Below are positions 231 to 19,897 of a stretch of DNA of 64,000 nt, piece after piece; position 1 is the first letter of the stretch; each line of letters begins with the position of its first letter. The stretch is taken from the NCBI GenBank assembly GCA_020633315.1, contig JACKDV010000004.1, positions 512,071 through 576,070 on the forward strand, given 5' to 3'. Origin of the DNA: Myxococcales bacterium (GTDB lineage Bacteria > Myxococcota_A > Polyangia > Nannocystales > Nannocystaceae). The notes under the pieces are model-generated. The model had not been told where the DNA came from. It searched no databases and worked only from the letters and a program-made list of their open reading frames with translations. A program made the translations under genes and the position numbers.

Positions 231-662
231 ATGGACTACGTGTCTGCGCGCTTTGCGTGCGCTGTCGTGGGCAACGCGGTGGTGGGAGTCCACGGCCCCG
301 ACGATCCCAACGACGCCGACTGGACCGCGTACCTCAACGCAGGGCGGGAGATCATGGCCACCGGCCAGGACCTCTGCGTGCTGGCCTACAGCCTCGGCGG
401 CGGTCCCAACAGCGTGCAGCGCAGCCAGGTCAACGACCTGTTCAAGAACCGACCCCAGCGGGTGGCCGTGATGCTGAACTCGGCCCTCGCTCGAGGCGCG
501 GTCACGGCCCTGTCGTGGTTCAACAACCGCATCAAGGCCTTCAACCTCGAGCAAGTCGACGAGGCCTGCCGCCACCTCGAGCTGTCGGAGGCCCACACGC
601 GACGGGTCAAGGCGGCGCTCGAGCGCCTGCGCGAGCAGCTGCTCGCGGCTAAGCGATCGTGA
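231..662 (+). CDS. Hypothetical protein (143 aa)
   Basis: ORF track 231..662. Balanced amino-acid composition and strongly GC3-biased codons, unlike the overlapping Arg/Pro-rich shadow frames. Confidence 0.55.
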   Translation: MDYVSARFACAVVGNAVVGVHGPDDPNDADWTAYLNAGREIMATGQDLCVLAYSLGGGPNSVQRSQVNDLFKNRPQRVAVMLNSALARGAVTALSWFNNRIKAFNLEQVDEACRHLELSEAHTRRVKAALERLREQLLAAKRS

Positions 663-2928
663 GCGCGGAGCCCACCGGCCGCCGCAAGGCGCGGACGGAC
701 GGGGCGGGACCGTAGAACACGCGAAGGAGCATCGCGTCGGTCTCCTCGCCGGTGACCGGGAAGTACCGCCGGTAGAGCTCGCGCTGCGTGCTCAGGGACT
801 CGAGGTCGCGCGGCTCCAGCCCCTCGCCGCGGCCGTGCTCGAGGCGGGCGAGCAGGTAGGGCAGCATGGCCATCGGCTGCAGCCACACCCCGCGGCGCGT
901 CGCCTCGAGCCACACCCGCTGGAGCGCGCGGCCCCCCTCGAAGTAGGCGGCGGGGGTGCCCCGGGGGATGGTCAGCACCGCGACGGCCGAGGACGCGAGC
1001 ACGGCCTTGCGGGAGGGCTTCTCGAGCGACGCCGACCCGCCCATGCGCTTGAGGAACGCCATGCCCGGCCAGTGCGCGAGCATGCGGAACGCCGCGGCGT
1101 CGGCTCGCGACAGGTCGAGGGTGGCCAGGTCGATCCCGTCTCGGGTGCGGCTGGCGTCCTGCGGCGTCCAGCGGAACTCCGACATGATCTCGCCGTGCAT
1201 CCGCCGGTTGAGGAACGCCACCCGGTCCACGCGCCCGAGGATGCCCGCGAGCTCGGCCAGCGCGCTCCGGTCCTCCTCGATGCGGAGCGTGGCCCCGTGG
1301 ACGACGGCGGCCTGCTCGAGCGCGGCCCGATCCCCCGGGTCGAGCGCTCGATCGTCGCCGAGCTGGCGGTTGGTCGCCCGCCGCCCGATCGCATCCACCA
1401 GCTCGTCGTGGACGGGATCGGTGGTGCCGGTGAGGCGCAGGGCGAACACCTGCGAGGGATCGCCGGGAGCGGGGAACGGCTCGAGCTCCACCCGCACGCC
1501 GAGGGCCCGGGCGGTGAGCTCCATGTTCTCGCAGACGGAGCCGAACGAGAGGTAGGTGGCGCGGTGCTCGAAGTCCAGCGTCGTCCACCCGGCCTCGGGA
1601 TCGAAGGACGTGGAGATCCGATCGCCCTCGTAGTGGAAGCGCCACGGCTGCGCGTTGCCCCCCGACGGCGCCATCATCCCGTGCTCGACCAGGGCCCGCA
1701 CCAGCTCGAGGGGCGGCGGCTGTCCCGGGTGTCGACGCGCCCGCAGGCTCTCCAGGCTCACCGCCGCCGACGCGGCCTCCTGCACGTACGGCGCCTCGGG
1801 CGGAGCGAGCTCGGCCTGCGCCCCCTCTCGGATGAGCTCGTGCAGGTCCACGTAGAAGCGACCCGAGGCCCGGAGCTCTCCCAGCAGGATCCGCCGGGCC
1901 ACGTCGGTGACGCACGCGCCTCCCAGCGCCACCGACGAGCCGAGCTGGGGCCAGGTCTCCAGCGTCTCGCCGATCGCGAACAACGAGCCGGCCAGGCGAT
2001 CGGAGATCGCGGTCTCGCCGAGGATGCGGAGCACGAAGGGCAGCTTCTCCTTGGTCGACAGGCCCGCGAGCGAGCCGGCGTCGACCTCCCCGATGAGCCC
2101 GTGGAACGACGGCCGCTCGGGCTCGAGATCGAAGCGCTCGATGTCGATCAGGCCGCGGTCGCTGGTCTCCATCACCACGGGGACCCGCAGGCGGCGGGCG
2201 TGCTCGCGGAGCAGGACCTTGATGTGCAAGGAGTCGCACTCCTCCACCAGCAGGTCGACCGGGCGGTCCCCGCCCAGGATCGCGTCGATGCCGTCCGCGG
2301 TGGCCCCCTGGTCGAACAGCTCGATCTCCAGGAAGGGATCGAGCTCCAGCATCTGCCGCGCCGCCAGCACGCACTTGTTGATGCCCAGATCCCACACCGA
2401 GGCCCGCAGCCGGTTCATGTTGGACAGCGACAGCCGATCGAAGTCGGCGAGGCGAAACCTCCCCGCCACCCCCTCTTGGGCCAGGGTCACCGCGCTCGAC
2501 TGCCCGACCGAGAGGCCGATCACCGCGATCGTGCGCTCGCGCAGGGCGGCCTGCTCCTGCGCGGAGATCTTGTTGCGGTTGCGATTGGACCGCAGCTCGC
2601 GGAAGTCGTCGCGCGCGAGCAGGTGGACCAGGTTTCCCGACCAGGGATAGTAGACCCACGCGCCGCAGCGCTCGGGCTCCCGTCCGTCGAGCCACCGCTC
2701 CACCCGCGCGCGCAGCCGATCCGACGAGAGCTCGGCCCCCGGGTCCCGGGCCGCCACCAGCTCGGCCACCTGCTCCTCGAAGGCGTCGTGCACGGCCCGC
2801 ACGGAGCCGTCGCCCAGGCGAGCCCGCAGGGCCTGCAGCCCTGCGTCATGGGATGGATCGAAGATCTCGGGGCGCCAGCTCTCGAGGTCGGGCGCGCCGT
2901 GCCGGCGGAGGAGCTCGCGGATCATCAT
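649..2928 (-). CDS. ThiF/MoeB-type E1-like adenylyltransferase fused to a nitroreductase-family domain (MoeY-like, 759 aa)
   Basis: Central Rossmann E1 motif (TIAVIGLSVGQSSAVTLAQEGV ... LADFDRLSLSNMNRL) typical of the ThiF/MoeB/HesA family. The N-terminal segment has a nitroreductase-like fold signature (SGGNAQPWRF). Length and architecture resemble Mycobacterium Rv1355c/MoeY. Confidence 0.8.
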   Translation of the reverse strand: MMIRELLRRHGAPDLESWRPEIFDPSHDAGLQALRARLGDGSVRAVHDAFEEQVAELVAARDPGAELSSDRLRARVERWLDGREPERCGAWVYYPWSGNLVHLLARDDFRELRSNRNRNKISAQEQAALRERTIAVIGLSVGQSSAVTLAQEGVAGRFRLADFDRLSLSNMNRLRASVWDLGINKCVLAARQMLELDPFLEIELFDQGATADGIDAILGGDRPVDLLVEECDSLHIKVLLREHARRLRVPVVMETSDRGLIDIERFDLEPERPSFHGLIGEVDAGSLAGLSTKEKLPFVLRILGETAISDRLAGSLFAIGETLETWPQLGSSVALGGACVTDVARRILLGELRASGRFYVDLHELIREGAQAELAPPEAPYVQEAASAAVSLESLRARRHPGQPPPLELVRALVEHGMMAPSGGNAQPWRFHYEGDRISTSFDPEAGWTTLDFEHRATYLSFGSVCENMELTARALGVRVELEPFPAPGDPSQVFALRLTGTTDPVHDELVDAIGRRATNRQLGDDRALDPGDRAALEQAAVVHGATLRIEEDRSALAELAGILGRVDRVAFLNRRMHGEIMSEFRWTPQDASRTRDGIDLATLDLSRADAAAFRMLAHWPGMAFLKRMGGSASLEKPSRKAVLASSAVAVLTIPRGTPAAYFEGGRALQRVWLEATRRGVWLQPMAMLPYLLARLEHGRGEGLEPRDLESLSTQRELYRRYFPVTGEETDAMLLRVFYGPAPSVRALRRPVGSALTIA

Positions 2929-2983: not shown

Positions 2984-5047
2984 TCACTTGGGGGCGGCGA
3001 GCTCGGCGATGCGCTCGAGCAGGTCGGGCGTGGCCAGGCGCGGCAGCAGGGTCAGCATGCCGGAGCCGAGGCTCTTGGCGTCGACCGAGCGCATGATGTC
3101 GGGGCGCCCGTGCTCGTCGAAGCACACGAAGCTGCTCTTGCCCACGCTGTAGAACCACTCGTTGGCGGCGACCAGCAGCGCGGGGAAGTGGCGGGAGCCC
3201 CCCGGCACCAGCTCGAACACGCGGGCCGCGTCGAGCAGGCCGTACAGGTGCAGGCCGTCCTCGACCGCGTCGAGCACGGCGGCGGCGACGATCCGCCCCT
3301 GCTCCGTGGCGACGAGCATGGTCCGCTCGCGCATGAGCCCGTGGAACGCCCACTCCTGCTGGAGCTCCTCCTGCTCGAAGGCTCCGGGCAGGAGGTCGTG
3401 GGCCTCGAGATAGGCGTGGGGGCGCTTGCCCTGCAGCGCGTGCAGCACCTCGTCCACCTGCTCGGGCGTGGCCGTGTCCACGTTGGGGACGTCCACGTCG
3501 TTGCACATGGTCACGTTGAGCCGCCAGACCTCGAAGGGCACGCCGACCGAGCCCGGCATGGAGAGCACGAACTCGCGGTGCAGCACCTTGCTGAAGCCCG
3601 CGTCGTCGCGGACGTAGCCGATGAGCCACTCGAGCCCCTCGTTGGCGCCCGCCCGCTCGTAGACGTGGAAGTGGATGTCCCGCAGCGGAGAGCTGTCGGA
3701 GTTGACCAGGTGGGGTCGATCCGCGTTGCGGGCCATGTGGAGGCCGAACCAGCTCTTGCTCCACACGCGGAGACCGGCCAGCGTGGCCTCGACGCGGGTC
3801 GGGCTCTCGTACGACACCAGGCAGCCCACGTCGGGGGCCGCCGCCAGCTTGCGGTACGCGTTCTCGAAGGAGTCGCGCATCATCTGGAAGCCGAGGGACT
3901 GCCGTCGGCCTCCCGAGAGATCGAAGTAGCCCGACGCCTCGAACAGATCCCAGATCGACTGGAAGTCGTGGCCGAAGCTCCGCGTGGTGGGGTAGAGCAG
4001 GTTCTCCACCTCGCGAGCCCAGCGCTCCTGCTGTGCCTCGGGGGCGCCCGAGAGCGCCAGGCCGATGGTGTCGCAGCGATCGTAGGGCGAGGGAGATCGG
4101 TGCCGCAGGTCGCCGACGAAGCGCAGCCCGGGGCCGCCCTTCCAGGTGACGACGACCTCGGGGATGCGCAGCCCCGGCTCGACCAGCTCGAGGGCCTCCC
4201 CCACCCGCGCCGAGACCCCGCCGAAGGACACGTCCTCCATCCTGAGCTCGAGGGTGTCCGCGGCCACGCCGTGCAGGATGACCTTGGCCCCCGAGGGCGC
4301 GAGCACTCGCCTCATCTGCCGACGGCGAGTGATCCTCACGTCCTTGGGCTGGACCTGGCCGCGCCAGCCCAGCGAGTCCTCGACGAAGGACACCGTGGAG
4401 AACGGCCCCTCCACCGTCACCTCGAACGGAGCCTTCATCTCGCCCCAGCGAGGGTCCCACTCCAAGAGGAGGCCGCGCTCTGGATCGAGCCGGCCGGGCA
4501 GGCATAGCCGGTCGGCGCTGCCCAGCGAGCGCACCTGGGCCCGCGAGCGCTCCGCGGTCAGGGCACTCAGTCGGCGAGCGATCCGATCCTCGGGCAGGCG
4601 CATCCGTCGGGGGCGGAGCGGGTGGTGGGGAGCATGCGCGAGCTCGTGGAAGCGGCGCGCGAGCTCTCGCCAGCGCTCCATGCCCTCGACGATCCACAGC
4701 AGGGCCTCGTGCCCGAGCTCGTACTCGGCGAGCCCGACCACGCGAGCTCGTCCCGACAGGTGGGCACGGCTTCGATCGCGGAGCTCGAACTCCACGACCT
4801 CGGCCACCGCCATCGCGGTCGCGCTGGTGAGGGTGAGGCGCATCCCCCACTCGCTGAGCTCCTGCACGACGCCACGCAGCTCACCGCCGAAGCTCACGGA
4901 GAGCTCGGGACGCGTGGGCTCGAGGCTCTCGGGCACGAGCACCGAGGACGGCGTGACCAGGCGCAGCGACGGTGAGGTGGCTCGTTCCTCCGAGCGCTCG
5001 CTCATCGCCCGGCTCCCTCCTGCTCCTCGATCCTCTCCCGACCCCAT
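2984..5047 (-). CDS. PilZ-domain protein with C-terminal uncharacterised (GNAT-like?) domain (687 aa; alternative start at ~5005)
   Basis: Contains the PilZ c-di-GMP-binding motifs RxxxR (ITRRRQMRRV) and D/NxSxxG (EDVSFGGVSARVG). A second degenerate PilZ-like segment lies near the N-terminus (LSVSFGGELRG). Lies in tandem with the ThiF-nitroreductase gene, 55 bp apart. Confidence 0.7.
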   Translation of the reverse strand: MGSGEDRGAGGSRAMSERSEERATSPSLRLVTPSSVLVPESLEPTRPELSVSFGGELRGVVQELSEWGMRLTLTSATAMAVAEVVEFELRDRSRAHLSGRARVVGLAEYELGHEALLWIVEGMERWRELARRFHELAHAPHHPLRPRRMRLPEDRIARRLSALTAERSRAQVRSLGSADRLCLPGRLDPERGLLLEWDPRWGEMKAPFEVTVEGPFSTVSFVEDSLGWRGQVQPKDVRITRRRQMRRVLAPSGAKVILHGVAADTLELRMEDVSFGGVSARVGEALELVEPGLRIPEVVVTWKGGPGLRFVGDLRHRSPSPYDRCDTIGLALSGAPEAQQERWAREVENLLYPTTRSFGHDFQSIWDLFEASGYFDLSGGRRQSLGFQMMRDSFENAYRKLAAAPDVGCLVSYESPTRVEATLAGLRVWSKSWFGLHMARNADRPHLVNSDSSPLRDIHFHVYERAGANEGLEWLIGYVRDDAGFSKVLHREFVLSMPGSVGVPFEVWRLNVTMCNDVDVPNVDTATPEQVDEVLHALQGKRPHAYLEAHDLLPGAFEQEELQQEWAFHGLMRERTMLVATEQGRIVAAAVLDAVEDGLHLYGLLDAARVFELVPGGSRHFPALLVAANEWFYSVGKSSFVCFDEHGRPDIMRSVDAKSLGSGMLTLLPRLATPDLLERIAELAAPK

Positions 5048-5274: not shown

Positions 5275-7026
5275 TCACCTCACCACGGCCTCCACCGCAA
5301 CGGTCCCCTCCTCGGCTGCCACCCACAGCCCGTCCACATCGAGCGCTCGCTCACTGGCCTCACCGAAGATCCGCAGCCGCAAGAGCGCACCGAGGTCGAG
5401 CACCGGCAGGCGATCCGAGCGCACGCGCAGCTGCTCGTCGAGCTGGCTGCGAAGCGCCTCGGGATCGAGCACGGCGGAGAAGCACGGCACCCGTCGCTCG
5501 CGATCGCCCTGCCGCTCGCGGCACCCCAGATACGCCGCATCGAGCGCACCACCCAGCCGCACCCGGCCTACCGCATCCTCGGGCCGAAGCGCCAGCACCC
5601 CGGTCGCGCCCAGCACCACGGTGCGCATCCCCGCGCGCTCGGGATCCCCCAGCTCGAGCACCACGCCGCCCAGCGTCGCCTCGATGCTCCCGTCACCCCG
5701 CGGGCGCAGCATCGGGGGTAGCTCCACCCCCAGCGCTCGAGTCTCCCAGCGCGTGCGCTCGCCGAGGCTCGCCTGCACCTCCTCGCGCAGTCCGCTGCGA
5801 TCGAGCTCGGCCTGCAGGCCCCCGCGCACCACCCACTCGGCCAGCAGACGATTGAGCAGATCTCCGCTCACGTCCACGCGGAGGTTGGCCCCCTCCCGTT
5901 CGGGCCGACGCGGCAACGGCAGCTCGGTGCCCAGCCACACCGCCTGGCTCGCGGCCTGGGTCCCCATCGCGTCCTCGCGGAGCTCCAGCCGCAGCGCCGC
6001 CGTGAGCCCGAGCTCGGCCGACAGCCGCGGCTCACCGCACCAATGGAGGTCGGCCACCAACGCCGGCTCGGTGGGCAGCACCACCACCTGCTCGGGCAGC
6101 CTCATCGCCTCGGTGGCCACCCGTAGCGCCCGCTCGATCTGCTCCTTGGCCTCGCGCTCCACCTCGCGCCGCGCCGTCTTCTCGCCCACCTTCTCGCCGA
6201 GCTTGCGCCCCACCAGCCCGCCTCCGGCCGCCACCGCCATGCCCAGCAGCGTGCCGCCGCCCGCCGCCGCCACCAGCCCGCCACCCACCGTGACCCCGAT
6301 CGCACCCAGGCGGCGCGCTCCCTCGGCGCGCGCGAGCGCCTCGAGCTTGGGCCCGGGCGCCGCGGTGTCGAGCCGGCGCAGCGAGGCGATGATGCCCGCG
6401 TCGCCCGAGCCCCGCACGTCGATCACCCCGGCCACCCGCAGGTCGCCCTTGTCCTCCTCGCTGGTGTCGAGCGCCACGTCGAAGCGCAGGCCGCCGTCGA
6501 CCACCTCGAGCACCTTGCGGGGCAGCACGCTGGTGGGCCCGAAGTACGCATTGCTCCGCGCCCCCGCGAGCAGCTTGGTCTCGACCACGGGCAGCAGCAG
6601 GTCGTGCACTCCCTGGGGGCCGAGCACCAGGCCCAGGTCGCAGCCGCGCTCCCGCTCGTGCTGCCAGGGGCCGGAGACCACCTCGTCGGAGAAGCGGGTC
6701 ACCCGACCCCCGCGACGGGTGAGCTCCAGCTCCACGAAGTGCAGGCCCGGGGACAGCCCGGGAAGCTCGAGCGCGATCCCGTCGTCGCCCACCGGCTGCA
6801 CCACCAGCTCGGTGTGGCGATCGAGCCGCGCCCGCAGCCGCTCGCGATCCTCCGCCGGCGAGACGGCAGCCTCGTAGCGCAGCGCCCCCGCCTCGGCCCG
6901 CAGCACCCCGGCCCCGCGCTCCAGCGCCTCGATCGGCCGCGGCAGCGCGCGCAGGCCCATCGCTCCGGCCACCGCCACGGCGGCGAAGCTCAGCATGCCC
7001 AGGCCGATCGAGAGCTCCTTGCGCAT
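5275..7026 (-). CDS. Hypothetical membrane protein (583 aa) with N-terminal TM helix and a Gly/Ala-rich internal hydrophobic segment
   Basis: ORF track. N-terminal MRKELSIGLGMLSFAAVAVAGAMG hydrophobic stretch. Coherent composition. Sits 4 bp downstream of the ABC ATPase-permease gene on the same strand. Confidence 0.55.
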   Translation of the reverse strand: MRKELSIGLGMLSFAAVAVAGAMGLRALPRPIEALERGAGVLRAEAGALRYEAAVSPAEDRERLRARLDRHTELVVQPVGDDGIALELPGLSPGLHFVELELTRRGGRVTRFSDEVVSGPWQHERERGCDLGLVLGPQGVHDLLLPVVETKLLAGARSNAYFGPTSVLPRKVLEVVDGGLRFDVALDTSEEDKGDLRVAGVIDVRGSGDAGIIASLRRLDTAAPGPKLEALARAEGARRLGAIGVTVGGGLVAAAGGGTLLGMAVAAGGGLVGRKLGEKVGEKTARREVEREAKEQIERALRVATEAMRLPEQVVVLPTEPALVADLHWCGEPRLSAELGLTAALRLELREDAMGTQAASQAVWLGTELPLPRRPEREGANLRVDVSGDLLNRLLAEWVVRGGLQAELDRSGLREEVQASLGERTRWETRALGVELPPMLRPRGDGSIEATLGGVVLELGDPERAGMRTVVLGATGVLALRPEDAVGRVRLGGALDAAYLGCRERQGDRERRVPCFSAVLDPEALRSQLDEQLRVRSDRLPVLDLGALLRLRIFGEASERALDVDGLWVAAEEGTVAVEAVVR

Positions 7027-7030
7027 GGCA

Positions 7031-8671
<1,641 letters not shown>

Positions 8672-8835
8672 CGCGCACCAAGGTAGCAGCCCTCGATCGC
8701 CTCGGCCTCGCTCGCGCCCCTGCGCCGCTCTCCGAACACCGATCCTCACCCCGTGTGGAGGCCCTCACGGCGCCCGACGAGAAAGCTCGGGCGCGCCTGA
8801 AACAACCCGGCCCCCACGGTAGTCTCCTGGGGCCA

Positions 8836-13594: not shown

Positions 13595-15139
13595 GTGGGA
13601 CCCATGCGCGTCCCCCTGACCGTCCGCGACTTCATCGACCGCGCCGAGCTCGTCTACGGCGATCGCATCGGGCTCGTCGACGAGCCCGACGCGCAGGCCC
13701 CGAGCTGGGGCGCCATCAGCTATCGCGAGCTGGCCCGACGGGTGCGGGCGTTCGCGGCCGGGCTCGATGCGCTGGGCATCGCCCCCGGCGAGCGGGTGGC
13801 GATCGTCTCGCCCAACTCGGCGCGCTTCGTGGCCGCGCTCTACGGCACCTGCGGCTCGGGTCGCATCCTGGTGCCCATCAACTTCCGCCTGCACGCGCAC
13901 GAGGTGGAGTACATCGTGAGCCACTCCGGGGCGCGGGTGCTGCTGGTCGACCCCGAGCTCGAGGACTCGCTGCGCGAGGTGCCGGTGGAGCACCGCATCG
14001 TGCTCGGGGCCGAGAGCGACGAGCTCCTGCTCCGCTACGATCGCGAGCCGGCCCCCGTGGAGCTCCACGAGGACCACGTGGCCACGCTCAACTACACCAG
14101 CGGCACCACGGCCCGCCCCAAGGGCGTGCAGCTCACCCACCGCAGCCTGTGGCTCAACGCCACCACCTTCGGCTGGCACGTGGGGATCGGCGATCGCGAC
14201 CGCTTCCTGCACCTGGTGCCGCTGTTCCACGTCAACGGCTGGGGCATGCCCTTCGCCCTCGCCTGCATGGGCGCCACGCAGGTGATGCAGCGCAAGGTGA
14301 GCGGGGCCGAGATCCTGCGGCGCGTGCAGGAGCACGGCATCACGATCACCAACGGCGCCCCCGCGGTGGTGCACGCGGTGCTCGACGCGGCCGCGGGCTG
14401 GGAGGGCCCGATCCCCGGCGGCGGCCGCACGCGGATCATCGTCGCGGGCGCCCCTCCGCCCACCCGCACCATCGAGCGGGTGGAGACGGAGCTGGGCTGG
14501 GAGCTCATCCAGATCTACGGGCTCACCGAGACCTCGCCGCTGCTCACGATCAACCGCGGCCGCGCCGAGTACGACGCGCTCGAGCCGGCCCTGCGCGCCG
14601 CCCGGCTGGGGCGCGCGGGGGCCCCGGTGCTGGGGGTCCGCGTGCGCATCGACGAGCTCGGCGAGGTGCTCGCGCGCGCCAACGTGGTCACCGAGGGCTA
14701 CTGGCAGGACCCGCCGGCCACCGCGGCCGCGATCGTCGACGGATGGTTCCACACCGGCGACGGCGGCACGATGGACGACGAGGGCTACGTGACGATCTCC
14801 GACCGCAAGAAGGACGTCATCATCTCGGGCGGCGAGAACGTGTCGTCGATCGAGGTGGAGGACTGCCTGTCATCGCACCCCGACGTGGCCGAGGTGGCGG
14901 TGATCGGCGTGCCCGACGACAAGTGGGGCGAGACCGTCAAGGCGCTGGTCGTGCTGCGTCCCGGCGCTGGCGCGGGCGAGGTGGAGCTCATCGCCCACTG
15001 CCGCGCCCACCTGGCGCACTACAAGTGCCCCACCTCGGTGGAGCTGCGCAACGAGCTGCCGCGCACCGCCACGGGCAAGCTGCAGAAGTTCGTGCTGCGG
15101 GCGCCCTACTGGAAGGGACGCTCGCGGCAGGTGGGCTGA
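13595..15139 (+). CDS. AMP-dependent acyl-CoA synthetase/ligase (fatty-acid--CoA ligase family)
   Basis: AMP-binding motif (YTSGTTARPKGV), conserved GYGLTET-like segment (IYGLTETS), and C-terminal GWFHTGDGG...DRKKDVIISGGENV...PRTATGKLQK typical of ANL adenylating enzymes. Confidence 0.9.
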   Translation: MGPMRVPLTVRDFIDRAELVYGDRIGLVDEPDAQAPSWGAISYRELARRVRAFAAGLDALGIAPGERVAIVSPNSARFVAALYGTCGSGRILVPINFRLHAHEVEYIVSHSGARVLLVDPELEDSLREVPVEHRIVLGAESDELLLRYDREPAPVELHEDHVATLNYTSGTTARPKGVQLTHRSLWLNATTFGWHVGIGDRDRFLHLVPLFHVNGWGMPFALACMGATQVMQRKVSGAEILRRVQEHGITITNGAPAVVHAVLDAAAGWEGPIPGGGRTRIIVAGAPPPTRTIERVETELGWELIQIYGLTETSPLLTINRGRAEYDALEPALRAARLGRAGAPVLGVRVRIDELGEVLARANVVTEGYWQDPPATAAAIVDGWFHTGDGGTMDDEGYVTISDRKKDVIISGGENVSSIEVEDCLSSHPDVAEVAVIGVPDDKWGETVKALVVLRPGAGAGEVELIAHCRAHLAHYKCPTSVELRNELPRTATGKLQKFVLRAPYWKGRSRQVG

Positions 15140-16173: not shown

Positions 16174-17427
16174 CTAGCCGGCCATCGGCTCGCCGAGGGC
16201 TTCCGAGGAGCCACGATCGCCGTAGGGCACATAGCGCACCGGCTCGGCCCCCACCAGCTGGTCGATGATGCGGCGCTGCACCTCGAGGCCCCGCGTCTCG
16301 GCCAGCCGATGCAGGGCGGGCACCCGGCGGCGGAGGGTCTCGAGCCCGAAGCGCCCCCCCGCGAGCAGGGCGACGAGCGGCGTGAGCGGCTCGGGCGGCA
16401 GGCCGATGTCGTCGATGGCCTCGTGCCCGAGGGTGAAGCGCGAGACCGCGTCGCGGTAGCGCATCACCACGCGGGCGGCGGCACGCTCCCACGGGGTGCG
16501 GGCGAGGCGGGCGGGCAGCTCGTGCAGGGCCCAGGCCAGCGCCCGGCTGTCGTCGTCGGCGTAGGGGTTGGTGATGCCGTGGATCAGCATGTGCCGCAGG
16601 CCGGTGCGGTAGTCGGGGGCCAGCAGCTCGTCGTCCGCCCCCATCACCACCCCCACGTAGCGCCACAGGTGCATCACGGCCTCGCGCTCGTCCTCGCGGA
16701 AGCGGTAGCCCAGGGCGATCAGGCCCGAGAGGTACACCGCGGAGAACTCGAGCTGGGTCGCGGCCATGTCGGTCTGGTTGATCGGCACTCCCCAGGCATG
16801 CTCGTCCCAGTCGGCCCGGTGCCGGAGGCTGCGGCGGACCTTGGCGTGCATCAGTCGCACCCGGCACGCGCTCTTGAAGCCCGCCGAGGAGCGCTCGAGG
16901 GTCTCCGACTCGATCACGTCGAGGGTGAAGCGCGAGGTCTCGGCGATGCGGCGGACCACCATGCGATCGAGCGCTCCGGTCATGGCCAGCGGCTTGACGG
17001 CGGCGCGGCTGCGGTAGCCGCCCATCAGCGCCATCGCGGTCAGCACCGTGCCGCCCGCGGTGCCCACCCGCCACGCGGTGCGGCAGGCGAGGCGCAGCGC
17101 GTCGCGATCGAGCCAGGCGGGCGCGCGCTCCAGCGGCTCGAACCAACGCACGAGGCACTCGGGGGCCTCCGGGACGGCGGCGAGGCCTTGCTCCACCACG
17201 CGCTCGAACAGCCGTCGCCCGTGCCCCGCCGGCTGCTCGGCGGCCCAGTCGACGAAGGCGTCGGCGACCGGGTCGGCGCGGAGCAGCCCCTGTCGCAGCG
17301 CGACCACGTCGGGGTCGCCCTCGTCGATGTGGATGCCGAGCAGGCGCCCGATCCATCGCATCCGCGTGGGCGGGTCGCGCAGGCGCTCCCCGTGCCAGCG
17401 GGTGGGAGTGGTGGAGGGCGTCGCCAT
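16174..17427 (-). CDS. DUF2236-family oxygenase (MpaB/Lcp-like)
   Basis: ~400 aa. Conserved RVRLMHAKVRR segment characteristic of the DUF2236/MpaB family. Non-repetitive sequence and GC3-rich codons. Confidence 0.7.
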   Translation of the reverse strand: MATPSTTPTRWHGERLRDPPTRMRWIGRLLGIHIDEGDPDVVALRQGLLRADPVADAFVDWAAEQPAGHGRRLFERVVEQGLAAVPEAPECLVRWFEPLERAPAWLDRDALRLACRTAWRVGTAGGTVLTAMALMGGYRSRAAVKPLAMTGALDRMVVRRIAETSRFTLDVIESETLERSSAGFKSACRVRLMHAKVRRSLRHRADWDEHAWGVPINQTDMAATQLEFSAVYLSGLIALGYRFREDEREAVMHLWRYVGVVMGADDELLAPDYRTGLRHMLIHGITNPYADDDSRALAWALHELPARLARTPWERAAARVVMRYRDAVSRFTLGHEAIDDIGLPPEPLTPLVALLAGGRFGLETLRRRVPALHRLAETRGLEVQRRIIDQLVGAEPVRYVPYGDRGSSEALGEPMAG

Positions 17428-17440
17428 GACGACCCCACTA

Positions 17441-18013
17441 CTATAGCCCGGGCTCGGACTGGCTCGGGCCGGCCTGGCGTCGCTGCACCCACGCCCGCAG
17501 GGCGACGAGCAGCGCGGCCAGGTGCTCGCGGGTGGGCTCGTCGCCGAGCTCGCCGTCGTGGAGCTTGTGGCCGGCCTGCGTCACCGCGAATTCCGGGTGG
17601 GGGAACACCTCGGCCGCCATGCCCAGGAGCACCTGCTTGAGCTGCCCCTGCGCCCGCACCCCGCCCATGAGGCTGGGGGAGGCGCTGACGATCGCGCAGG
17701 GCTTGCCCGCGAACACCGAGCGGTAGGCGGGGCGAGAGGCCCAGTCGATCGCGTTCTTGAGCACGCCGGGGATCCCGTAGTTGTACTCGGGGGTGGCGAT
17801 GAGCAGCGCGTCGGCCTCGGCGATGCGCTGCTTGAAGGCCTCGACGGGGGCGAGCGCCGCGGGATCGTCGAGATCGGGGTCGTACATGGGGATCGGCCGC
17901 AGGTCGTCGATGACCAGCTCCACCCCCGCGGGGGCGAGCGCGCGGGCCGAGACGAGCAGGGCGCGGTTGATCGATGCGCGACGGAGACTACCGGGAATGC
18001 CGAGGATCTTCAT
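17441..18013 (-). CDS. NADPH-dependent FMN reductase family protein
   Basis: MKILGIPGSLRRASINRALL ... LIATPEYNYGIPGVLKNAIDW ... FAGKPCAIVSAS are hallmark flavodoxin-like FMN reductase motifs. 14 bp downstream of the DUF2236 gene on the same strand. Confidence 0.85.
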   Translation of the reverse strand: MKILGIPGSLRRASINRALLVSARALAPAGVELVIDDLRPIPMYDPDLDDPAALAPVEAFKQRIAEADALLIATPEYNYGIPGVLKNAIDWASRPAYRSVFAGKPCAIVSASPSLMGGVRAQGQLKQVLLGMAAEVFPHPEFAVTQAGHKLHDGELGDEPTREHLAALLVALRAWVQRRQAGPSQSEPGL

Positions 18014-18165
18014 GGTGACGGGCTCTGGTACGGACGGGGCGCGAGGAGGTGAGAACGGGGCTCCGTGTAGCAGGAAACGACGCGGCGTGGCGTGGTGCAA
18101 CACCGCGCGCCGCCAGATGACCAGCGATGCGAGGTGGTGCCATTCTTGCTGGGTCGAGGACGATC

Positions 18166-19141: not shown

Positions 19142-19897
19142 CTACAGCACGAAGGGGATCAACGCCCGGCGCCGGCGCGGATAGTCGTCGAACTGCTCGC
19201 GATACCAGCGGTGGTTGGCCAGCGCCCGCGGTCCCACGTTGGCCGCGGTGTAGAGCGCAAAGGCCAGGCCCGGCAGCGACCAGGTGGCGATGGCCCAGCC
19301 CACCCACTCGACGATCTCGCCCAGGTAGTTGGGGCACGAGACCCACTCGTACAGCCAGCCCCGCGGGATCGCGTAGCCCCCCTCGCCGGGGCGACGCAGG
19401 GCGAGCAGCATGCGATCGGCGCGCTTGTTGATCGCATAGCCCGTCGCGAACACGGCCCCGCCGATCCACGGCCGCGGATCGGCCAGCCAGGCGATCGAGT
19501 AGTCGCCCAGGTGAGAGATCCACCGCGCGTTGATGTAGGCATTGAGCGAGTTGAAGACCACGCCCGCCAGCGCGATCACCAAGGGCATGGGCCGCGGGGA
19601 ACGCTGGCGAAACGGATACACGAAGGTGCGGTGCACGTAGTGCAGCTGCCACAGGCCCAGCAGCAGCAGCGGCACCAGCTGCAGGGCATGATCGCCGCGC
19701 AGGTAGATGGCCACGAACAGCAGCACGGCCGGGCTCTCCATGATCACCCAGCCCAGCCACGCCGGCACCGACGGGCCCCAGCCCTTGCGGTAGTGCCGAC
19801 CGTAGGGCGCACGGAACAGCAGCAGCGCGCCGGCGGTGAGCACCGCCAGGCCGATCTGGGCCCAGGTCAGCGCATGGTGCAGCTCTGCCTCGCTCAT
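19142..19897 (-). CDS. Steroid 5-alpha reductase-like / DUF1295 family polytopic membrane protein
   Basis: C-terminal motif GWLYEWVSCPNYLGEIVEWVGWAIATWS typical of the 3-oxo-5-alpha-steroid 4-dehydrogenase / ICMT-like family. Multiple TM segments. Confidence 0.8.
   Translation of the reverse strand: MSEAELHHALTWAQIGLAVLTAGALLLFRAPYGRHYRKGWGPSVPAWLGWVIMESPAVLLFVAIYLRGDHALQLVPLLLLGLWQLHYVHRTFVYPFRQRSPRPMPLVIALAGVVFNSLNAYINARWISHLGDYSIAWLADPRPWIGGAVFATGYAINKRADRMLLALRRPGEGGYAIPRGWLYEWVSCPNYLGEIVEWVGWAIATWSLPGLAFALYTAANVGPRALANHRWYREQFDDYPRRRRALIPFVL

Follow-up and report, generated by a model that had tools for sequence, protein, structure and literature searches.

A predicted oxazolone synthase and its PilZ–tandem-GNAT neighbour in a Myxococcales genome: a candidate c-di-GMP-gated pathway

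The DNA analysed here (the window) is a stretch of 64,000 nucleotides from a Myxococcales genome. Near its start lies a gene encoding a 759-aa protein in which an E1-like adenylating domain is followed by a nitroreductase-type flavoprotein domain, and a PilZ protein is encoded immediately upstream. What does this enzyme make, and what supplies its substrate? The reading that we favour, with a probability of about 0.6, is that c-di-GMP-gated synthesis of an N-acyl amino acid by the upstream 687-aa partner feeds an oxazolone synthase, the 759-aa enzyme.

The ThiF–FDO fusion and its predicted chemistry

The fusion gene and its domains, of which the third is a flavin-dependent oxidase (FDO), are as follows.

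649..2928, minus strand: ThiF–FDO fusion, 759 aa, predicted oxazolone synthase of the Rv1355c/TrzS family (NF005901, GC3)
2584..2928, minus strand: N-terminal family extension of ~115 aa (conserved columns; no Pfam domain)
1789..2583, minus strand: ThiF/E1-like adenylating (cyclase) domain, ~aa 116–380 (PF00899, TcdA alignment)
658..1722, minus strand: flavin-dependent oxidase, Acg-type tandem nitroreductase fold, ~aa 403–757 (PF00881, NF047509, 2YMV)

The 759-aa open reading frame begins with ATG, and GAGG lies 5 nt ahead of it. Third-position GC (GC3) is 0.95 in this frame as compared with 0.54 and 0.74 in the two longest overlapping frames, indicating that it is the real one. The NCBIfam model NF005901 (‘Rv1355c family protein’) matched with 759.7 bits, well above its cutoff of 476, confirming the kinship to Mycobacterium Rv1355c (MoeY) that a preliminary description had proposed. 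This equivalog match is full length, residues 15–757 aligning with profile positions 8–719 of 722. The end-to-end alignment indicates a single uninterrupted gene and, together with the uniform GC3, rules out a frameshift or two-gene artefact. More than 3,400 homologues were found at E ≤ 1e-10. The closest actinobacterial ones, from Streptomyces, are about 45–50% identical, and an identical protein is already held by NCBI under the title ‘MAG: Rv1355c family protein [Myxococcales bacterium]’.

Domain searches bore out the presence of both folds in one chain. Pfam placed ThiF (PF00899) at residues 116–253 with an E-value of 2.6e-16, and Nitroreductase (PF00881) was matched at 1.5e-09. The segments GLSVGQSSAV, DFDRLSLSNMNRL and SGGNAQPWRF start at residues 138, 162 and 422 respectively. 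Conservation was read from a 17-sequence alignment of mixed sources, the named ones being Myxococcota, Streptomyces and Kitasatospora. The N-terminal ~115 residues, to which Pfam assigned no domain, have conserved columns at P20, D48, Q53, R61, W91, W96 and H102. In the ThiF domain a nucleotide-binding set (G138, G142, D162, R173 and K185) and D232 are invariant. The closest solved structure to this half by sequence is TcdA (4YED/4D7A, E about 6e-06); D232 aligns with an Asp in the ‘DAIDS’ of TcdA and may be the counterpart of the catalytic D217 of Mycobacterium smegmatis TrzS. The FDO half matched NF047509 (Acg-family FMN oxidoreductase) with 147.6 bits over residues 413–686, and its closest solved structure by sequence is Acg (2YMV, E 4.4e-06). 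Invariant here are P421, S422, N425, Q427, P428, W429, R517, N520 and R521, and the conserved positions include the motifs APSxxNxQPW and RRxTNR.

The function of MoeY had been described as unresolved, a view that is now outdated. Rv1355c is TrzS, an N-acyl-tryptazolone (oxazolone) synthase that joins an ATP-dependent cyclase and an O2-dependent flavin desaturase in one chain (Kleetz et al., JBC 2025, PMC12856293). Its conversion of N-acyl-tryptophan to N-acyl oxazolone was established in vitro with site-directed variants (PMC12856293), following work on OxzB (2020/21) and TyzBC (2023, PMC10404671). The enzyme type is thus already known, by name in NCBI and by chemistry published in 2025, and orthology suggests that the 759-aa protein belongs with TrzS and OxzB among the oxazolone synthases. 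Its ThiF-like domain would activate an N-acyl amino acid by ATP-dependent adenylation of its carboxylate, whereupon the amide oxygen would close a 5(4H)-oxazolone ring; the FMN-dependent oxidase domain would then use O2 to desaturate the bond between C-alpha and C-beta. These cyclization and desaturation steps are predicted from orthologues, the experiments being those on M. smegmatis TrzS and OxzB. Neither the acyl chain nor the amino acid can be predicted, so a ‘tryptazolone’ product should not be assumed here.

A conserved PilZ–tandem-GNAT neighbour

The neighbouring genes and the domains of the 687-aa protein are as follows.

231..662, plus strand: 143-aa SpoIIAA/STAS-like protein (GC3 0.90, weak PF11964, conserved neighbour)
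2984..5047, minus strand: 687-aa PilZ–tandem-GNAT protein, candidate N-acyltransferase partner (upstream, same strand)
4685..4900, minus strand: N-terminal PilZ-like beta-barrel, aa 50–121, with degenerate ligand motifs (weak PF07238, model)
4049..4606, minus strand: YcgR-like PilZN + PilZ module, aa 148–333, with canonical c-di-GMP motifs
2996..3985, minus strand: tandem GNAT acyltransferase fold, aa 355–684 (structure model; not detected by Pfam)
7031..8749: ABC ATPase fused to an MlaE permease (Pfam)

An acyltransferase partner next to ThiF–FDO is the rule. Of 80 genome loci, 53 have a gene for a small FeeM-type N-acyl-amino-acid synthase directly beside the homologue, and two actinobacterial loci (Nocardia and Pseudonocardia) have an adjacent synthase of the PF13444 type, giving 55 of 80 loci, all outside Myxococcota, for the two small types combined. 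The loci in which no small synthase was detected are nearly all from Myxococcota. A family HMM and phmmer, run on six-frame ORFs of 50 aa or longer, detected neither type in the 64-kb window or in the myxobacterial loci examined. In 15 distinct Myxococcota-type loci, the conserved neighbour of ThiF–FDO is a PilZ–GNAT gene, which occupies the position taken elsewhere by the small synthase. Sometimes, as in locus L086, the stop and start codons of the pair overlap. The association was also seen in reverse, for members just 22–30% identical, and one Acidobacteriota locus has a weak PilZ–GNAT match beside ThiF–FDO. In a neighbour-joining tree, ThiF–FDO proteins with PilZ–GNAT neighbours were not separated from Streptomyces ones with FeeM neighbours. 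The PilZ–GNAT gene was missing from the examined flanks of some myxobacterial homologues (L004, L019 and Anaeromyxobacter L090), and in Paraliomyxa a PilZ–GNAT/STAS pair adjoins a divergent stand-alone ThiF rather than the fusion. The tandem PilZ gene had been correctly recognized earlier (same strand, PF07238); it had been taken as incidental, and these loci show it to be a conserved partner. In the window 55 nt separate its stop codon from the 759-aa gene, and the two are probably co-transcribed.

In a confident structure model, the 687-aa protein combines a YcgR-like receptor for c-di-GMP with a C-terminal tandem GNAT acyltransferase. Residues 54–109 gave a weak PF07238 match, and in the model the strands of this first PilZ-like domain span aa 50–121; as read from the sequence, it has ExSxxG and lacks RxxxR. 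The second PilZ domain carries the c-di-GMP motifs R243xxxR247 and D272xS274xxG277, and the fold of its module matches c-di-GMP-bound YcgR, MrkH and PP4397. Across 35 sequences these ligand motifs are at least 90% conserved; Sorangium members of the family lack the canonical motif. The assignment of aa 355–684 to the GNAT fold comes from the predicted structure, for which the best solved match is NAT16, an amino-acid N-acetyltransferase. Pfam returned only Acetyltransf_9 at E 0.15 for the C-terminal region, and searches of the GNAT region against Pfam, NCBIfam and PDB sequence profiles gave nothing significant. Alignment with the FeeM-type family by hhalign detected no sequence homology (probability 0.05%). 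The acyl-CoA motif (Q/R-x-x-G-x-G/A) is not evident, a single Gly after the predicted beta-4 being kept in the family consensus. At 50% identity the family forms at least 469 clusters, and its proteins are currently labelled merely ‘PilZ domain-containing protein’.

The 143-aa gene is convergent with the ThiF–FDO gene and overlaps its 3' end by 14 nt. Homologues adjoin ThiF–FDO in nine further distinct loci, and matches to PF11964 (SpoIIAA-like), weak but recurrent, were found in seven of eight family members (best E 5.4e-05). A PDB profile search with the 143-aa protein gave no match, and a single-sequence structure model was unusable (pLDDT 52). In the window and the myxobacterial loci examined, this STAS-like gene and PilZ–GNAT are the conserved neighbours, and the former is the third member of the proposed module. 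The ABC exporter-like gene noted in the preliminary description is indeed nearby, as the ABC ATPase–MlaE permease fusion, but it is not in the conserved neighbourhood: both it and a 583-aa gene were excluded from the module, being missing in a 67%-identical relative and in all other loci. The genes examined in the 12–26 kb part of the window included none for c-di-GMP turnover.

The substrate source in this genome is most likely the 687-aa protein. Its C-terminal tandem GNAT would join an acyl group from acyl-CoA to an amino acid, the YcgR-like PilZN–PilZ module would make this step responsive to c-di-GMP, and the 143-aa STAS-like protein would be an accessory component. Gene neighbourhood, motifs and fold are the grounds on which we propose the acyltransferase role and its gating, and the PilZ–GNAT/oxazolone synthase module appears to be an undescribed variant around a known enzyme. 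More tentatively, and at somewhat less than even odds, Myxococcota and some relatives may have an unrecognized family of c-di-GMP-activated tandem-GNAT N-acyl-amino-acid synthases that feed ThiF–FDO enzymes within a three-gene module.

Alternative roles for the two proteins

A GNAT fold alone is no guide to substrate, and the domain's target for acetylation might instead be some protein or a different small molecule. The 759-aa protein might thus be an oxazolone synthase that draws its N-acyl amino acid from an unlinked synthase, while PilZ–GNAT is a c-di-GMP-responsive acetyltransferase with another target: it might modify some protein, perhaps even the synthase, or some unrelated small molecule. 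The Myxococcus xanthus PilZ-PilZ-GNAT protein PixB alters motility reversals via the Frz system (PMC8316039), an effect suggestive of a target that is a protein or lies in signalling. The few myxobacterial homologues without a PilZ–GNAT neighbour fit such a division of labour, as does the extent of the small-synthase search, which spanned 64 kb of this genome. We nevertheless regard it as unlikely, since outside Myxococcota the adjacent gene so commonly encodes one of two small acyltransferase types, since Myxococcota loci put PilZ–GNAT at that very position, with overlapping codons in L086, and since the best structural match is to an amino-acid N-acyltransferase.

The remaining alternatives concern the 759-aa protein itself. 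Both its historical gene name, moeY, and weak sub-threshold matches of ThiF/MoeB models over the Rossmann region would suit an E1 of the MoeB/ThiF type whose substrate is a small sulfur-carrier protein, activated by adenylation and thiocarboxylation, and whose flavoprotein domain has a redox role, as the preliminary description had entertained. Yet those models reached 35–50 bits against cutoffs of 150–450, as compared with a Rv1355c match far above its own; the protein lacks CxxC zinc motifs, having only five cysteines (88, 186, 231, 339 and 466); no small Gly-Gly-ended ORF was found in 12 kb of window sequence or in the extended contig; the ThiF domain is closest by sequence, among solved structures, to TcdA; and characterized family members act on small molecules. 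This role is very improbable and is effectively refuted already. Least credible of all is an E1-like docking protein with a SagB-type dehydrogenase in TOMM/RiPP-type peptide modification, also considered earlier, or an E1-based anti-phage system. The pairing of E1-like and nitroreductase-like domains does resemble TOMM C and B proteins, and PADLOC E1–E2 models gave weak matches (best E 2.5e-08). These were limited to residues about 110–253, the generic E1 Rossmann region, and an anti-phage system was rejected; the nitroreductase half belongs to the Acg/FDO type rather than to the SagB type. No YcaO, precursor peptide, E2 or JAB/deubiquitinase is encoded by the genes called on the 16-kb contig or by those examined to 26 kb of the window, the absence of the first two being as originally described.

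Significance and comparison with known systems

The novelty lies in the context rather than in the enzyme. In M. tuberculosis the trzAS locus is flanked by the c-di-GMP turnover genes rv1354c and rv1357c, which its authors mention only briefly, regarding the physiological role of oxazolones as the major open question (PMC12856293). Those flanks may be an independent hint of a c-di-GMP link. Here, in a different phylum, the likely substrate supplier and a canonical c-di-GMP receptor are parts of one polypeptide. What was a loose adjacency thereby becomes a hypothesis that can be tested directly, namely that c-di-GMP gates oxazolone production. A sizeable uncharacterized family, PilZ–GNAT, also gains a candidate function. 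If the more tentative reading, that of a c-di-GMP-activated synthase family, is true, c-di-GMP signalling would have oxazolone lipids or signals among its outputs, the c-di-GMP genes around trzAS would be explained, and a small-molecule substrate would be suggested for PilZ–GNAT proteins such as PixB.

To our knowledge, no known protein joins a PilZ receptor and tandem GNAT modules beside an oxazolone synthase. The receptors YcgR, MrkH, MotI and PP4397 and the tandem GNATs NAT16, GLYAT, VipF and N-myristoyltransferase are 8–20% identical to the 687-aa protein. A described myxobacterial protein of similar layout is PixB (MXAN_2604), in which two PilZ domains precede a GNAT (PMC8316039). PixB acts as a regulator of motility reversals and of development in M. 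xanthus; it binds c-di-GMP, and its acetyltransferase domain is essential for function, with a substrate that is not known (PMC8316039). Its R121, R331 and acetyltransferase domain from ~451 are collinear with the R46 region, R247 and GNAT from ~355 of the 687-aa protein, although the GNAT of PixB was found by Pfam and that of the 687-aa protein was not. Peptide fragments derived from pixB primers had no match in 302 retrieved proteins, and two metagenome scans with the primer sequences gave 0 matches and 14 irrelevant ones.

For the 759-aa protein, TcdA (CsdL, the tRNA t6A cyclodehydratase) is distant kin: it is ThiF-like, lacks Zn-binding cysteines and uses ATP to form an oxazolone/hydantoin-type ring, but acts on tRNA and has no flavoprotein domain. 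OxzB/OxzA of Pseudoalteromonas rubra and TyzB/TyzC/TyzA of M. tuberculosis share the ATP-dependent ring closure by ThiF and desaturation by FDO (bioRxiv 10.1101/2020.06.11.147165; PMC10404671), their substrates being N-acyl aromatic amino acids from a neighbouring acyltransferase. They differ in that OxzB falls in the FDO-A8 subcluster (A4 for Rv1355c), TyzB and TyzC are separate proteins, unlike the fusion, and OxzA and TyzA have a FeeM/AHL-synthase-like fold, not a PilZ-bearing tandem GNAT. Closest is TrzS of M. tuberculosis, M. smegmatis and R. jostii RHA1, which shares NF005901 and the order of N-terminal extension, ThiF-like cyclase and Acg-type FDO in one chain of ~720–790 aa. Its partner is a small N-acyltransferase of the TrzA type, none of which was found beside the 759-aa gene or among the six-frame ORFs of the window; here the proposed partners are the 687-aa PilZ–tandem-GNAT protein and the STAS-like protein.

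The ThiF-oxidase fusion enzyme

The genes considered here are:
649..2928, minus strand: ThiF-FDO (flavin-dependent oxidase) fusion gene, 759-aa ORF
2984..5047, minus strand: upstream gene for a 687-aa PilZ-tandem-GNAT protein
231..662, plus strand: convergent gene for a 143-aa SpoIIAA/STAS-like protein

At a G+C content of ∼72%, every frame of the window contains long spurious ORFs. Third-position GC in the 649..2928 frame was 0.95, a value typical of a genuine gene; the longest two of the ORFs that overlap it in other frames gave 0.54 and 0.74. The ATG is preceded by GAGG at 5 nt, and only 55 nt separate the gene from the stop codon of its upstream neighbour. Pfam recognized a ThiF domain (residues 116-253, E 2.6e-16) and a Nitroreductase domain (E 1.5e-09), while the NCBIfam equivalog NF005901 ('Rv1355c family protein') scored 759.7 bits (cutoff 476), its profile positions 8-719 of 722 covering residues 15-757. 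The C-terminal half was also matched by the NCBIfam Acg-family FMN oxidoreductase model. Together, these matches show that the gene is one intact fusion. This confirms the preliminary description, which had proposed a single-polypeptide fusion of ThiF/E1 and nitroreductase-family domains related to Rv1355c/MoeY: the flavin fold is present, no hidden frameshift interrupts the end-to-end match, and the three motifs that it quoted lie at residues 138, 162 and 422. By sequence, the enzyme belongs to the TrzS/Rv1355c family. An identical protein is present in NCBI as 'MAG: Rv1355c family protein [Myxococcales bacterium]', and there are more than 3,400 homologues at E<=1e-10, the closest being 67% identical and the next, from Streptomyces and Myxococcota, ∼45-50%. 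Taken alone, we would rate the gene as a further member of an already known family.

An alignment of 17 homologues of mixed sources, those named being from Myxococcota, Streptomyces and Kitasatospora, contained more than 100 invariant columns. These include G138, G142, D162, R173, K185 and D232 in the ThiF domain, and P421, S422, N425, Q427, P428, W429, R517, N520 and R521 in the oxidase domain; both domains look functional on this basis. Among solved structures, the oxidase half is nearest by sequence to Acg (2YMV) and the ThiF half to TcdA, a ThiF-like ATP-dependent cyclodehydratase without zinc cysteines. Residues 1-115, ahead of ThiF (window 2584..2928, minus strand), have no Pfam assignment, and P20, D48, Q53, R61, W91, W96 and H102 are strongly conserved in the 17 sequences. 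By analogy with other ThiF-like enzymes, this extension could be a substrate-binding or clamp domain.

Predicted chemistry

The function of MoeY/Rv1355c had been described as unresolved, a view that is out of date. In December 2025, the Eltis group identified Rv1356c as TrzA, which N-acylates L-tryptophan, and Rv1355c as TrzS, which produces an N-acyl tryptazolone by ATP-dependent cyclization and subsequent O2-dependent desaturation; the D217A and R540A variants of TrzS lack cyclase and desaturase activity respectively (PMC12856293). OxzB, also a ThiF-nitroreductase fusion, works with the N-acyltransferase OxzA to form N-acyl oxazolones (De Rond et al., bioRxiv 10.1101/2020.06.11.147165). TyzA/TyzB/TyzC of Mycobacterium tuberculosis perform the same chemistry, as reported by the Eltis group in work that assigned Rv1355c to the flavin-dependent oxidase subcluster FDO-A4 of 14,445 sequences (PMC10404671). 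An adjacent acyltransferase (OxzA, TyzA, TrzA) is required in all published oxazolone pathways.

By orthology, the 759-aa protein very probably has the oxazolone-synthase chemistry of its family (probability about 0.85). The ThiF domain would activate an N-acyl amino acid by adenylating its carboxylate, the oxazolone ring would then be closed by the amide oxygen, and the FMN oxidase would desaturate the Cα-Cβ bond with O2, all three steps being established for the family.

Three other readings were rejected. A sulfur-carrier/adenylation role, suggested in the preliminary description, was abandoned because the protein contains no CxxC motif and no small Gly-Gly-ended ORF was found nearby. A thiazole/oxazole (TOMM) pathway was discarded because none of the neighbour genes examined encodes a YcaO protein, as had already been remarked from the sequence, and a defence system because PADLOC returned only generic E1 matches.

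The proposed acyltransferase partner

The neighbourhoods of homologues of the 759-aa protein were compared in 80 genome loci, using a FeeM-type profile (PF21926) built from the gene adjoining the Streptoverticillium homologue. In 53 of the 80, a FeeM-type gene was the immediate upstream or downstream neighbour and shared the strand of the homologue; these loci include every Bacteroidota locus, 5/6 Streptomyces-type loci, one Janthinobacterium and one Planctomycetota. Another small synthase, of PF13444 type, was found in one Nocardia and one Pseudonocardia locus. In the Nocardia sp. locus (L050:7536-9898), an aromatic amino-acid ammonia-lyase (PF00221, E 3e-133), unexpected company for an oxazolone pathway, lies divergent from the TrzS homologue and is followed by a PF13444-type acyltransferase. 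Neither type of synthase was found in six-frame ORFs (>=50 aa) of the 64-kb window, in 4 kb past its left edge (L001) or in any myxobacterial locus examined. Since this small adjacent synthase, one of the features that define trzAS and oxzAB, is missing, we treat the pathway of the window as a variant and not as a plain trzAS locus.

The 687-aa upstream protein gave only a weak PilZ match in Pfam and nothing significant in NCBIfam. Its AlphaFold2 model (35 sequences) was confident (pLDDT 84.9, pTM 0.83), and Foldseek matched it to YcgR, MrkH and PP4397, then to VipF, MAB_4324 and N-myristoyltransferases. In the PilZ domain that directly precedes the GNAT part, both canonical ligand motifs are present (R243xxxR247 and D272xS274xxG277). 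Conservation of R247, D272, S274 and G277 reaches 90% or more across the family alignment, and 139/182 family sequences have the motif pair. The N-terminal PilZ-like barrel (50-121) is degenerate. At the sequence level, the GNAT part had no detectable relationship to the FeeM-type family (hhalign) and none to solved structures. An exhaustive profile search yielded 469 clusters (50% identity) at E<=1e-30, the few named members being labelled 'PilZ domain-containing protein'.

A homologue of the 687-aa gene lies near a homologue of the 759-aa gene in 15 distinct Myxococcota-type loci, among them Minicystis, five Sorangium genomes, Polyangia and a Nannocystales MAG; one Acidobacteriota MAG locus had a weak match. 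The convergent 143-aa gene has homologues in 9 further distinct loci, and 7/8 members of its family match PF11964 (SpoIIAA-like), all below threshold. In the reverse test, a family member 23% identical to the 687-aa protein overlapped a 764-aa ThiF-nitroreductase gene by 11 bp (L086), and a 30%-identical member was divergent from an operon encoding a 146-aa small-protein homologue, a 771-aa ThiF-nitroreductase and an FAD monooxygenase, with an O-methyltransferase gene close by (L088). A fragmented member also adjoins a ThiF gene. Three myxobacterial homologues (L004, L019, L090) are exceptions, having no PilZ-GNAT neighbour within the flanks covered. The preliminary description had noted both a PilZ neighbour and an upstream ABC gene; the former is a conserved partner, while the ABC-MlaE gene and the 583-aa gene next to it are not conserved with the module in the loci of relatives.

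In a neighbour-joining tree, enzymes with PilZ-GNAT neighbours were not separated from Streptomyces enzymes with FeeM-type neighbours, which points to a shared enzyme chemistry and a difference in the partner only. [quoted passage not shown]

Several loci show further variation. The metagenomic locus L088 (2193-7189 and 10384-12636) has a ThiF-FDO gene followed by an FAD-dependent aromatic-type monooxygenase, two flanking PilZ-GNAT paralogues and the nearby O-methyltransferase, which suggests a tailored, natural-product-like oxazolone cluster. In Anaeromyxobacter sp. Fw109-5 (L090:3909-6830), the TrzS homologue is near a SpoIIE phosphatase/STAS_2 partner-switching set and a PAS-GAF histidine kinase, a regulatory setting other than PilZ-GNAT, yet again with a STAS protein. 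In Paraliomyxa miuraensis (L092:8001-12983), a PilZ-GNAT and STAS-like pair adjoins not a fusion but a divergent stand-alone ThiF-like protein (435 aa, PF00899 E 4.7e-04), together with a 396-aa protein without a Pfam match and a PEP-utilizing enzyme; this may be a split or diverged form of the pathway.

Elsewhere in the window, 5275..8749 (minus strand) encodes an ABC ATPase-MlaE permease fusion (572 aa) and, 4 nt downstream, the 583-aa protein, which has an N-terminal hydrophobic segment and no Pfam match; they may be a Mla/MCE-like lipid-trafficking pair. An AMP-binding (acyl-CoA synthetase-like) enzyme (13595..15139, plus strand), ∼8.5 kb from the module, could supply an acyl donor. Near it are:
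16174..17427: MpaB/Lcp-type oxygenase
17441..18103: FMN reductase
19142..19897: steroid 5-alpha-reductase-like protein

Comparison with known systems

In M. tuberculosis, as the TrzS authors point out, c-di-GMP genes (rv1354c and rv1357c) flank trzAS (PMC12856293). PilZ and Myxococcota are absent from both their paper and the 2025 ThiF review, and, to the extent that the literature is searchable, the enzyme's conserved pairing with a predicted c-di-GMP-sensing tandem GNAT protein has not been described. The pairing has a direct bearing on the purpose that oxazolones serve. By architecture, the nearest characterized protein to the 687-aa partner is PixB of Myxococcus xanthus, a c-di-GMP-binding protein with a GNAT domain in addition to two PilZ domains; PixB cannot function without its acetyltransferase domain, and its gene may share an operon with two downstream genes (PMC8316039). 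The spacing of the motifs in PixB is collinear with that in the 687-aa protein.
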